Positions 55 through 9,676 of a DNA stretch of 14,630 nucleotides are shown in pieces. The notes under the pieces were generated by a model, which did no database searches, was not told where the DNA came from, and was given only the letters and a program-made list of their open reading frames with translations. A program made the position numbers and the translations under genes. Source of the stretch: a virus (lineage: Duplodnaviria > Heunggongvirae > Uroviricota > Caudoviricetes); IMG/VR virus record IMGVR_UViG_3300029288_004479; one strand, 5' to 3'. Positions within the stretch are counted from its first letter, which is position 1. Each line of letters begins with the position of its first letter.

Positions 55-888
55 ATGCCAGTTGACGCAACAGCAATCATAGGTCTTCTTATAGGGTTCC
101 TTGTCGTAGGCGTGATAGGGGTATATGTGGGAGATCAGATGGTAAGTGCAGCAAACTTATCAGCAACAAACACATATACAACAGGAAACACCGAAGTTAC
201 AACTACTTCTTCATGGACAATTCCAGCCAACGTATACTCTATTGATCTTATCGTCATAGGGTCAGGTGGTGGTGGAGGTTCAGGTACAAACTCAACCGAG
301 AAAGGTGGTGGCGCTGGTGGAGCCGGTACAGCATCAACGTATACGGGAATATCTACAACACCGGGCGGTTCAGTAGCAATCGTCATTGGAGCCGTAGGTA
401 CAGGGGGAACAGATGGTAACGGCACAGCAGGAGCGGCCTCGTCCGCGACAGTAGGTGCAACGCCATACACAGGAGCAGGTGGATCAAAAGGTATTAACGG
501 TACAAGTGCAACCATAAACGGTGCTAATGGTGCTGCCGGATACGGTGCAACAGGATCATCAGGTACGGCAACAGCAGGTACGGGAGTAGTGACTCCGGGT
601 ACAGCAGGCACAGTAGGAACCGGTCGGGGTGCAGGTGGCCCGGGTGGTGGTATGGGAGCAGCAGGGTCTGACGGATCTGGTGGTAACGGTGCCGCAGGTG
701 CCGTAGAGATCACGTATTACACGACAACAGGAACTGTTGATCCATTGTATGCATCACAACAGAGTGTAGTTAGTACATTCCAGTTAGGTGTAATATTATG
801 TAAGATCATTGTTATCGTATCAATAGCAAGTATAGTATTTGTACTCCTTCAGAAGACCGGACTGATTCCACGGTTTGGAGAAAGGTAA
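55..888 (+). CDS. Putative virion structural protein: two hydrophobic helices (spindle-shaped-virus capsid-like architecture) flanking a Gly/Thr-rich domain
   Basis: The track starts at TTG 31, but ATG 55 downstream of GGAGGAGG is more likely. N-terminal AIIGLLIGFLVVGVIGVYVG and C-terminal FQLGVILCKIIVIVSIASIVFVLL hydrophobic segments. The central VYSIDLIVIGSGGGGGSG...GGGAGGAG...GAAGAVEITY segment is typical of phage glycine-rich domains. Four N-X-S/T sequons. The capsid assignment is inference. Confidence 0.6.
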   Translation: MPVDATAIIGLLIGFLVVGVIGVYVGDQMVSAANLSATNTYTTGNTEVTTTSSWTIPANVYSIDLIVIGSGGGGGSGTNSTEKGGGAGGAGTASTYTGISTTPGGSVAIVIGAVGTGGTDGNGTAGAASSATVGATPYTGAGGSKGINGTSATINGANGAAGYGATGSSGTATAGTGVVTPGTAGTVGTGRGAGGPGGGMGAAGSDGSGGNGAAGAVEITYYTTTGTVDPLYASQQSVVSTFQLGVILCKIIVIVSIASIVFVLLQKTGLIPRFGER

Positions 889-918
889 CTTAAAAAGTTA
901 CTTACATTAACCTTTTTT
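863..918 (+). repeat. Copy 1 of a ~57-bp imperfect direct repeat (gene 3' end + hairpin + T-tract, likely terminator)
   Basis: tgattccacggtttggagaaaggtaacttaaaaagttacttacattaacctttttt; 48 of 59 aligned columns match 1301-1359; inverted repeat GTAACTT/AAGTTAC at 885-901, then a T6 tract. Confidence 0.85.
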
Positions 919-970
919 AGTAATCGTGCAAAATAGCAAATATTACTTCCTTTTATTATAGATAAGGCAG

Positions 971-1284
971 CAAGAAAACCCCTGTTTTTAAACAGGGGAT
1001 GAATTGCGTTAACCCAAACAAATAAATCTGAACGCATTGAAACTATGAGTGACCATACAATGTTGAATTGTATGTGTGTTGCTCTCACAACAAGATTGTG
1101 CGAACACAATGTAGCTGGTGATTCTCCCGCAAACGAGATAGTCAGTAGTGGCCGTTTCAACCGGCCTGTGAGAATAAGGTTGGCTTTCGAGCCGACAAAC
1201 TTCTCCAAAGTAATTAGAACGAGATGTGTTGTTCACCAGAACGACCTCACGCTCAATCCTCCCATTTTAACGGGAGGTAGTTGA
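971..1284. mobile_element. Non-autonomous IS200/IS605-family element with no transposase or nuclease ORF and a structured-RNA interior
   Basis: Subterminal hairpins at both ends: caagaaaaCCCCTGTTT-tt-AAACAGGGGatgaattgc (979-998) and CCTCCC-attttaac-GGGAGGtagttga (1258-1284). On the minus strand these read TCAACTACCTCCC...GGGAGG and GCAATTCATCCCC...GGGGTTTTCTTG, matching IS200/IS605 end patterns as I recall them from IscB-type elements. Exact boundaries are uncertain by a few nt. Confidence 0.7.
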
Positions 1285-1326
1285 ATACAGAGGAATGGGT
1301 TGATTCCACGTTCTGGAGACGATTAG
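1285..1326 (+). pseudogene. Remnant 3' end of a paralogue of the 55-888 gene
   Basis: ata cag agg aat ggg ttg att cca cgt tct gga gac gat tag = IQRNGLIPRSGDD*, versus LQKTGLIPRFGER* at the end of 55-888. Confidence 0.7.
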
Positions 1327-1359
1327 TGACTTAAAAAGTTACCTATATTAACCTTTTTT
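1301..1359 (+). repeat. Copy 2 of the ~57-bp repeat (hairpin + T-tract terminator)
   Basis: tgattccacgttctggagacgattagtgacttaaaaagttacctatattaacctttttt; hairpin GTGACTT/AAGTTAC is retained with one G.U pair. Confidence 0.85.
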
Positions 1360-4081: not shown

Positions 4082-4533
4082 CCAAAACTTCCCGGGATGT
4101 TGACAATCAGCAAAAAAAACAGCAATGCCATGCGACTGTATGTAAATTATATCCATCATGTGGGCGTTATAGTAATTATTTACCCCCCTGTGCCACAAAC
4201 GTTCCTGTAAAAAAACAGACATCTTCCGAATTACGCATGAACGAGGAACGAAGGGAATACAACATCTCGTTCAAAGAAGATCCATTACTTACGGCATTCG
4301 CTGAAGGTCAGAAATATGGGAGAGACGAAGAACGGAGGAGATTAAGAGATCTACTCAAAGCGATATTCAGTGATAAGGCAGAAACCGCAGATACATTGCT
4401 GCACGACCCCTTTACAAAATTGACCTCCAGAAGGACGTTAAAAATTCAAGGGACAACATTCGCTGAAGCAGTACTTATTGTTGAAGAATATTTAAGTGAA
4501 CAACACCAGCAAACATTTCTTAAAAAGGAGTAA
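4078..4533 (+). CDS. Hypothetical protein
   Basis: ATG 4078 overlaps the previous TGA and follows GGAGG, so it is preferred over the track's 4057 start; N-terminal C/H cluster, charged C-terminal part. Confidence 0.65.
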   Translation: MTKTSRDVDNQQKKQQCHATVCKLYPSCGRYSNYLPPCATNVPVKKQTSSELRMNEERREYNISFKEDPLLTAFAEGQKYGRDEERRRLRDLLKAIFSDKAETADTLLHDPFTKLTSRRTLKIQGTTFAEAVLIVEEYLSEQHQQTFLKKE

Positions 4534-8586: not shown

Positions 8587-8698
8587 GGGCCTATAGTGTG
8601 AGCGGCAGCACGTCAGACTTTTAAGGGGACTCTTCCCACGACCACCACGGAGTTCCCGAAGAAATCTGATTGCACGGGTTCGATTCCCGTTAGGCCCA
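8587..8698 (+). tRNA. tRNA-Lys(TTT) with a 40-nt intron (8624-8663) at position 37/38
   Basis: GGGCCTA/TAGGCCC, TCAGA..TCTGA anticodon stem. Bulge-helix-bulge: CUUU pairs with GAAG (8658-8661), bulges UA|A and AA|A, intron stem GGGGACTC/GAGTTCCC. Confidence 0.93.
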
Positions 8699-8992: not shown

Positions 8993-9064
8993 GGGTGCGT
9001 GGTATAACGGACATTATCACAGCCTGTCACGTTGTGGACTCGCGTTCAACTCGCGGCGCATCCG
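8993..9064 (+). tRNA. tRNA-Asp(GTC)
   Basis: GGGTGCG/CGCATCC, ACAGC-CTGTCAC-GTTGT, TCGCG-TTCAACT-CGCGG, G73. Confidence 0.92.
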
Positions 9065-9085
9065 TTTTATGTATGGGATAAATTT

Positions 9086-9676
9086 ATGTTAACTTCAGAA
9101 CAGGCAAGAAAAATTGGAATTATTGGTGCAAAACTTACAGGTGAAATAAGTAAACAACGCAGATTAGTAGCAATTGCAAATTACGATAAAGATCCAAAAT
9201 TATGTCTAATCTGTGGTAAACCACTATCCTACCAACAGAAACTTAATAGAAATAAATATTGTAGTCATTCATGTGCTGCAACAAAATCAAATCAAAACAG
9301 AAAAGTAAAAAGAATGTGTTTGTTTTGTGGGAAAATACTAAATAAAGATCAAAAAAAGTTTTGCAGTCACACATGTCATGGTAATTATGTTACATCAAAA
9401 CACATGATGGATGGAGAACCATGCAGTCCAAAATCATTAAGAAGATATTTATTAGTAACAAGAGTGTATATGTGTTCAGAATGTGGATTACCAACGTGGA
9501 AAAATAAGCCAATTCCATTGGAAGTGCACCATATTGATGGGAATTGTGATAACAATAAGGAAGAAAACTTGGAATTATGGTGTAGAAACTGTCATGGTTT
9601 AACTGAAAATTTTGGAAATCGTAATAAAACAGGGAATGGAAGAAGAGTAAAAACAAGATTAAAAAAACACAATTAA
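9086..9676 (+). CDS. HNH (homing-type) endonuclease with N-terminal zinc-ribbon repeats
   Basis: CLICG..YCSHSC, CLFCG..FCSHTC, then CSECG...LEVHHIDGNCDNNKEENLELWCRNCH. The track start at 9032 lies inside tRNA-Asp; ATG 9086 is used instead. Confidence 0.92.
   Translation: MLTSEQARKIGIIGAKLTGEISKQRRLVAIANYDKDPKLCLICGKPLSYQQKLNRNKYCSHSCAATKSNQNRKVKRMCLFCGKILNKDQKKFCSHTCHGNYVTSKHMMDGEPCSPKSLRRYLLVTRVYMCSECGLPTWKNKPIPLEVHHIDGNCDNNKEENLELWCRNCHGLTENFGNRNKTGNGRRVKTRLKKHN

Follow-up and report, generated by a model that had tools for sequence, protein, structure and literature searches.

Positions 961-1285 of the window, as we call the entire 14,630-nt stretch of DNA analyzed here, appear to be a non-autonomous, ORF-less derivative of an IS200/IS605 element, of the PATE/MITE type, that has kept the guide-RNA scaffold of TnpB; given the sequence comparisons described below, we put the probability of this reading at about 0.88. 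The identity as a gene-less IS200/IS605 derivative is, in itself, a high-confidence assignment. The element, about 330 bases in size and without a protein gene, is a new example of the already described PATE kind, found in an archaeal mobile genome, and brings in no new RNA class: a known mechanism accounts for what looked like a structure-rich orphan RNA.

The window belongs to a JGI metagenome contig of 216,809 bp, the genes of which are packed on one strand. The neighboring genes include a tRNA array (one of the tRNAs with an intron), a histone, an HNH nuclease, and an AglB/STT3 oligosaccharyltransferase, and the source is an archaeal virus-like or other extrachromosomal element. The close relatives of the ParB-like neighbor come from the same strain, with identical DNA; an exhaustive search otherwise yielded only distant ParB proteins, and no relative of this gene was found among the IMG/VR viral contigs. 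Two tRNA predictions within the window differ between programs: a 112-nt tRNA at 8587-8698, probably intron-containing, is identified by Rfam and is not reported by ARAGORN, and a tRNA-Asp at 8993-9064, identified by ARAGORN and not in Rfam, overlaps the start of the ORF for the HNH endonuclease (9032-9676). The parts of the element are the following.

956-960, plus strand: target or transposon-adjacent motif (TAM) TTATA, directly 5' of the left end.
961-1012, plus strand: left end (LE), with a subterminal hairpin at 979-998 and a lower stem GCAA/TTGC at 970-973/1003-1006; delineated by BLASTN to relatives.
1013-1106, plus strand: middle segment of 94 nt, specific to the miniature form, with hairpins at 1054-1074 and 1095-1110; without a match in full-length elements.
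1045-1284, plus strand: ORF of 79 amino acids, not regarded as a gene; the final ~58 codons represent a residual tnpB frame, and its homologs are only TnpB C-termini.
1107-1285, plus strand: putative reRNA (omega RNA) scaffold, a relic of the last ~59 tnpB codons and the right end; 82-92% identical to contigs L005-L008.
1114-1119/1141-1146, plus strand: scaffold helix in the RNAalifold consensus.
1123-1126/1135-1138, plus strand: scaffold helix of a variable hairpin in the RNAalifold consensus.
1150-1154/1162-1166, plus strand: scaffold helix GGCCG/CGGCC in the RNAalifold consensus.
1170-1174/1201-1205, plus strand: scaffold helix GAGAA/TTCTC, enclosing GTTGGCT/AGCCGAC.
1179-1185/1190-1196, plus strand: scaffold helix GTTGGCT/AGCCGAC in the RNAalifold consensus.
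1254-1265/1270-1283, plus strand: scaffold helix of the right-end hairpin in the RNAalifold consensus.
1254-1285, plus strand: right end (RE) with the subterminal hairpin CCTCCC..GGGAGG and the terminal transposon-encoded motif TTGAA; kept in 9 of 9 copies of the TnpB family.

The boundaries are set by homology. An earlier note on this DNA had placed the element at 971-1284; the alignments give 961-1285 plus the motif at 956-960. On the left, the block 956-1012 is similar to contigs L006 (2399-2455; 93% identity by BLASTN), L007 (1392-1437; 91%), and L008 (97-148; 80%), where it matches the sequence just outside the first gene of full-length elements. Contigs with differing upstream flanks align from 955/956 on, and the pentamers that precede the left end in seven independent copies (TTATA, TTATA, CTATA, TCATA, CCATA, TCATA, and TCATA) share the form YYATA, with TTATA found in the window and in L006, and with unrelated sequences further upstream. 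The lower stem of the LE hairpin covaries among relatives, L009 and L015 included (GCAA/TTGC, GCGC/GCGC, and GGGC/GCCC). On the right, the similarity ends after GGTAGTTGAA at 1285 in every alignment, the loose ends of contigs fall at 1285/1286, and, in the relatives, the tnpB stop codon TGA sits 1 nt inside this shared boundary. The element is bordered by TTATA on one side and TACAG on the other, so that there is no target-site duplication, and terminal inverted repeats are absent. The hairpins at the two ends (979-998 and 1259-1278) resemble each other, both having the form CCnCCn, a TTTT(T)AA(A) loop, and nGGnGG on the same strand, and this likeness recurs in at least eight relatives. Such mutually similar LE and RE hairpins are a hallmark of IS200/IS605 ends.

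The relatives of the element carry the expected genes. The 79-codon ORF has one homolog, on a short contig from the same sample (L005), where the frame extends upstream into VLNADIVGSMNQIRK, a RuvC-III-like motif; a search with this longer protein fragment retrieved 30 IS605 OrfB/TnpB proteins (PF01385, PF07282), with C-termini 49-92% identical. Four contigs (L007, L008, L018, and L020) contain Y1_Tnp beside OrfB_IS605 (tnpB). BLASTN of such contigs against the window, akin to the check proposed in the earlier note, showed the ends to be shared with full-length relatives, either with tnpB alone (L006; 1,546 bp) or with tnpA, a 122-aa ORF, and tnpB (L007 and L008; ~2.35 kb). With subterminal hairpins at both ends and relatives that encode Y1 TnpA and TnpB, the assignment to IS200/IS605 made in that note holds. 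The conserved ORF of 121-122 aa between tnpA and tnpB (L007:1856-2224, L008:568-933, and L019:149-517, all on the minus strand) has no Pfam family and may serve this IS family in an accessory role. The right part of the miniature element, 1107-1285, aligns with the 3' end of tnpB together with the RE of L006 (92% identity by BLASTN), L005 (90%), L007 (85%), and L008 (82%).

The nearest relative of the miniature element is the TnpB-only IS of contig L006. Contigs L023 and L024 are 100% identical over 20.5 kb, the latter belonging to an ENA contig from another sample that matches the genome of the window, and L006 and L024 lie on one ENA record, so the TnpB-only IS resides in the same genome as the window; from the coordinates, it is located ~10.2 kb past the window end and ~23.5 kb downstream of the miniature element. 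Directly downstream of this IS are two tRNA genes, L006:4173-4261 (89 nt, probably intron-containing) and 4418-4492. The encoded TnpB (P0004; L006:2501-3943) consists of 480 aa, with RuvC motifs I and III present and the motifs GIDLGV and LNAD readily read. Both this protein and its relative P0005 (L007:2501-3760) have no cysteines at the usual Zn-ribbon CxxC sites (YTSRTDALAYDE…KSITGVILNAD), and the PF07282 score of their family is below the curated cutoff. Because of these two features, the nuclease activity of P0004, plausible from its sequence, is not assured. Among solved structures, Cas12f alone was matched, weakly (E about 1e-4).

The sole tnpA in the ~35 kb examined (window, L001, and L023) comes from another IS605, the ends of which are unrelated, and shares only 40% identity with the TnpA of this family; the cognate TnpA, which is present on another contig from the same sample (L007), thus may be encoded elsewhere in the genome or in the host. 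That second, unrelated IS605-type element (L023:15580-17320), about 3.3-5 kb past the window end in the same genome, encodes a TnpA of 138 aa and a TnpB of 392 aa in the same orientation and has hairpins CCCCCGGATTTATCCGTGGGG on the left and CCCCTGCCTTTAGGCATGGGG on the right.

In TnpB systems, the last part of tnpB doubles as reRNA scaffold, and the guide is taken from the DNA just beyond the right end (Karvelis 2021, PMC8612924). The sequence of 1107-1285 fits this architecture, and we take the conserved RNA that it would specify to be a standard TnpB reRNA read from the plus strand. Folding of 919-1290 gives -108.5 kcal/mol on the plus strand, compared to a mean of -82.2 for dinucleotide shuffles (z -4.95; 0 of 100 as good), far beyond chance, so the hairpins seen in the earlier note are real. 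We aligned the right part of the element with its counterparts in eight relatives, the TnpB C-termini of which are 92% to 53% identical. The RNAalifold consensus comprises 42 pairs in eight helices, and compensatory double changes occur in 16 of these pairs, compared to a shuffle mean of 6.3 (none of 500 shuffles reached 16) and to 0-1 such pairs when the partners were slid by 1-3 columns; these counts come from 9 sequences, in 8 of which the region is also coding. Across the alignment, 94.4% of the cells are paired. The copy in the window retains 39 of the 42 consensus pairs, having lost three, including the innermost pair of the RE hairpin. The covariation analysis suggested in the earlier note thus came out in favor of a structured RNA, with 16 of 42 pairs compensatory and no shuffle as good. 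That note would have given up its reading had the interior proved to be a decayed coding fragment devoid of covariation; the right part is, indeed, a fragment of tnpB, yet the base-pair covariation is there.

The inverted repeats listed in the earlier note are all found in place: CATACAAT/ATTGTATG (1054-1061/1067-1074), TCTCACA/TGTGAGA (1083-1089/1167-1173), ATTGTG-CGAA-CACAAT (1095-1110), GGCCG/CGGCC (1150-1154/1162-1166), GTTGGCT-TTCG-AGCCGAC (1179-1196), and the end hairpins (979-998 and 1259-1278). The proposed TCTCACA/TGTGAGA helix closing three hairpins is, by contrast, not upheld: the full-length relatives lack a counterpart of TCTCACA, and this helix competes with GAGAA/TTCTC (1170-1174/1201-1205), which shows compensatory changes in the relatives. 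The idea that the whole interior is one multibranch RNA survives for the structured right part but not for the left 50 nt, which would be the DNA hairpin of the transposase, nor for the 94-nt middle segment, the pairing of which with the right part is not conserved. The retention of a guide-RNA scaffold in an ORF-less copy, also put forward there, agrees with the covarying region 1107-1285, to judge from the alignments; its use would be in trans. A group I intron or another ribozyme was considered and rejected, given that Rfam has no match and homology accounts for the structure.

The stretch is present in six sequencing runs, which stem from four studies of landfill or groundwater metagenomes; no RNA run is listed among them. 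In four runs, one from each of four studies, the summed contig depth is 3-10 times that of the flanks exactly over about 955-1285. The loose ends of contigs lead into at least six different left flanks (at 955/956/967/970) and at least three different right flanks (at 1285/1286), and independent assemblies break at 1015 (L003 and L004) and at 1234, as expected of a repeat. Other, diverged gene-less copies were seen among the contigs of these runs. The middle segment 1013-1106 itself occurs in other contigs of the four runs, with 6-10% divergence, joined to the LE or to the RE/scaffold side; hence, gene-less copies with the same middle exist elsewhere. The miniature element is a mobile, multi-copy family. 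No empty-site or excision joints were found among the contigs of the four runs, which is to be read with the fact that contigs drop rare variants. A search of phage records with 600-1700 gave no DNA match in distant mode, and the IMG/VR viral contigs contain no exact match to three element patterns of 21-23 nt; exact-pattern scans located the RE hairpin in seven metagenome contigs and in two MAGs of Thermoplasmatota.

These observations bear on the main competing possibility, a somewhat unlikely one in our estimate, namely that the element in the window is a dead relic, produced by an internal deletion in an IS, recent enough for the ends and scaffold still to look intact, and neither mobilized nor used as a guide RNA. 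The three lost consensus pairs (one of them in the RE hairpin), the location of the insertion in a decayed gene fragment, and the lack of a cognate tnpA within the ~35 kb examined would all be natural for such a relic. However, the ORF-less form with its private middle is found in several diverged copies at different sites, which implies that this form transposed after the deletion, and the whole covarying scaffold of ~180 nt has been retained. TnpA should need only a hairpin of ~30 nt. Accordingly weighed, the reading of 961-1285 as a derivative that keeps a TnpB guide-RNA scaffold is preferred, with moderate confidence, at about even odds, that the RNA of this particular copy is actually made and used.

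The minus strand folds as well as the plus strand (-110.4 kcal/mol compared to a shuffle mean of -86.2; z -4.78, 0 of 100 as good), in line with the strand ambiguity pointed out in the earlier note; the orientation of tnpB in the relatives, nevertheless, resolves the scaffold to the plus strand. An independent, structured non-coding RNA of the minus strand that is unrelated to transposition and ends at the hairpin 998-979 followed by a T-run seems, therefore, very improbable, even if the terminator scan reports 998-979 on that strand, and weak, sub-threshold Rfam matches (psRNA14 and RydC) occur there as well. The E-values of these matches are 0.5-1, with scores far under the gathering thresholds; the putative terminator is the LE hairpin, which the IS family conserves at a constant spacing from the target motif, and, on the plus strand, the right part that is conserved runs collinearly with tnpB.

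Equally hard to sustain is the view that the ORF 1045-1284 (79 codons) is a genuine small protein gene that originated from the C-terminal tail of TnpB. The frame is open and was called by gene callers on L004 and L005, but no Pfam or PHROG family matches any of the three ORFs that overlap the element, and the homologs are only the tails of full-length TnpBs. Furthermore, no Shine-Dalgarno-like sequence precedes 1045, and other copies have lost 1 nt at 1039 and gained 2 nt after 1066, changes that disrupt the frame. The start of this ORF lies in the middle segment, which, compared on both strands with the interiors of five full-length elements, gave no significant local alignment. This segment might act as a promoter, lengthen the RNA at its 5' end, or be filler; as a lesser possibility, it might be a promoter or 5' module that gives the miniature element transcriptional autonomy. 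The sole promoter-like sequences that we could read are TATA-like runs at 952-960 and 1021-1030.

The same ends accompany other cargos. Elements in L009 (586-1904), L015 (on the minus strand of the locus), and L013 have the same LE and RE hairpins and YYATA motif and carry, in place of tnpB, a 396-aa RRXRR (PF14239), IscB/IsrB-like gene. The shared right end lies on the 5' side of this gene, across ~100 nt of non-coding DNA, so that the same flank would be read as a guide from the opposite strand; the RE-adjacent region of these elements is unrelated in sequence to the scaffold, and the Rfam HEARO model does not match them. In L010 (3259-3458) and L017 (minus strand), a second, unrelated TnpB lineage (C-terminus with LNADLNAARNIA) is found with an identical RE hairpin followed by TTGAC, which indicates that the transposase-recognized ends are exchanged between TnpB lineages in Thermoplasmata MAGs. 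The RE hairpin thus is kept also in elements with other cargo, and the transposase-recognized ends are a module common to several cargos: one pair of ends serves at least four, a TnpB with a degenerate Zn-ribbon, the second TnpB lineage, the RRXRR/IscB-like gene, and the gene-less form. This IS family circulates among Thermoplasmatota-associated genomes and the 217-kb archaeal virus-like element. That the scaffold would be an IscB-type (HEARO) omega RNA or a wholly new class of guide-RNA scaffold, the latter suggested in the earlier note, has a negligible probability: no Rfam family matches the scaffold, and the same end hairpins do occur with the RRXRR (IscB/IsrB-like) gene, but the scaffold is 82-92% identical to ordinary tnpB 3' ends with their RE, the guide side is at the RE as in TnpB systems, and the corresponding region of the RRXRR elements is of unrelated sequence. 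The failure to match the HEARO consensus, as opposed to the new class, was reproduced: within the region, Rfam yields nothing at the gathering threshold and, at E<=10, no HEARO and nothing beyond chance-level matches; on L006 and L009, it yields only tRNAs.

The insertion site is made up of the following segments.

850-918, plus strand: 3' end of the resident Gly-rich gene (ORF 31-888), a hairpin, and a T6 run; copy 1 of a repeat of ~70 nt.
919-955, plus strand: left flank, possibly a decayed remnant collinear with about 811-849 of the resident gene; suggestive only.
1286-1305, plus strand: sequence directly 3' of the right end, predicted from the TnpB reRNA architecture (PMC8612924) to supply the guide.
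1286-1359, plus strand: right flank, in which the final 13 codons of the resident gene, its hairpin, and its T-run recur in diverged form (78-91%); from repeat search and alignment.

The resident gene matches Pfam Gly_rich_2 and PHROG tail families. The 3' end of this tail/capsid-like gene and its terminator-like hairpin form the direct repeat pair 850-918/1288-1359 around the element, the second copy of which lacks the upstream gene body and translates in frame as IQRNGLIPRSGDD*. When the element is excised in silico, its two flanks together match the resident gene collinearly at about 811-918. The left part of this alignment is weak: for 919-955, 101 of 500 shuffles were as good in an unrestricted local alignment with the resident gene (not significant), and 18 of 2000 in a global alignment restricted to the collinear 60 nt. 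The 3' end of the Gly-rich gene has a partial, diverged tandem duplicate, and the element sits within this duplicate, for which recombination with an insertion-carrying relative and repair after a break are candidate origins. Two other readings were rejected, namely an integrase-type att duplication and a 70-nt target-site duplication, the latter because the repeat is not adjacent to the LE and its identity is only 78-91%. The guide 1286-1305 has no other target-type match with 3 or fewer mismatches within the window. In the resident gene, the corresponding site lacks TTATA, and about 6-7 of the first 20 positions of the guide are mismatched, so this gene would not be a target.

Combining these observations, we propose the following mechanism. 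The LE and RE hairpins would be single-stranded DNA substrates of TnpA which, supplied in trans, would excise the element and insert it 3' of YYATA, in this case TTATA. The scaffold of ~180 nt, shared in full-length elements with the 3' end of tnpB, would be transcribed on the plus strand and, together with ~16-20 nt of the flank beyond 1285, would give a guide RNA. A TnpB made elsewhere, the closest candidate being that of the TnpB-only IS ~23.5 kb downstream, would load this RNA, and the complex could cut element-free insertion sites (TTATA and flank), an outcome that would help the element to be retained or to home. We infer from the arrangement of the sequences that this copy is transcribed, that TnpB loads the RNA in trans and cuts, and that the copy is still mobile. 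A further conjecture, which we consider improbable, is that the orphan reRNA, if loaded by TnpB from the sister IS, guides cutting of the uninterrupted, variant Gly-rich 3' ends of co-infecting relatives, with the element's own genome spared. If true, this would be a transposon-derived gene-drive or superinfection-exclusion device in an archaeal virus, and the diverged tandem duplication around the insertion would be a repair scar of such cutting. Archaeal mobile DNA here provides a clean natural case of a guide-RNA module that would act in trans, and the system offers a testable triple of TnpB, reRNA, and TAM (TTATA-like).

Among the known systems, the HEARO/IscB omega RNA (RF02033) is likewise a guide-RNA scaffold encoded at a transposon end in the same IS superfamily, but the scaffold described here has no Rfam match to it at E<=10 and is homologous to tnpB 3' ends rather than to the regions upstream of iscB. 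The Sulfolobus TnpB editing systems (bioRxiv 10.1101/2023.03.06.531077; PMC11043419) resemble the present one in having an archaeal IS200/IS605 TnpB, a guide RNA derived from the RE, and a T/A-rich TAM; they represent another lineage, and the likeness is one of descriptions, not of sequences or TAMs. With the reRNA of the ISDra2 TnpB (Karvelis et al. 2021, PMC8612924; cryo-EM, PMC10097598), the element shares a scaffold that extends from within the 3' end of tnpB to the RE, a guide that would be the flank just 3' of the RE, and a TAM that is the TnpA target motif 5' of the LE. There is, however, no detectable sequence similarity between the two, the TAM is TTATA-like as opposed to TTGAT, and the cognate TnpB is a protein of 480 aa without the Zn-ribbon cysteines. 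The tertiary features of the ISDra2 reRNA include a pseudoknot.

The closest counterparts are the PATEs, ORF-less IS200/IS605 derivatives with omega RNAs that need TnpB in trans, for example, those of Geobacillus stearothermophilus (Meers et al. 2023, PMC10055086). The element in the window differs from these in its archaeal (Thermoplasmatota-associated), virus-like host, in its ends and TAM (YYATA), in being known from sequence alone, and in its private 94-nt middle segment. In common with the PATEs, it has no protein gene, LE and RE hairpins that are shared with autonomous and TnpB-only elements, multiple copies, a conserved target motif at the LE, and an apparently retained omega RNA (reRNA) that would need TnpB in trans.
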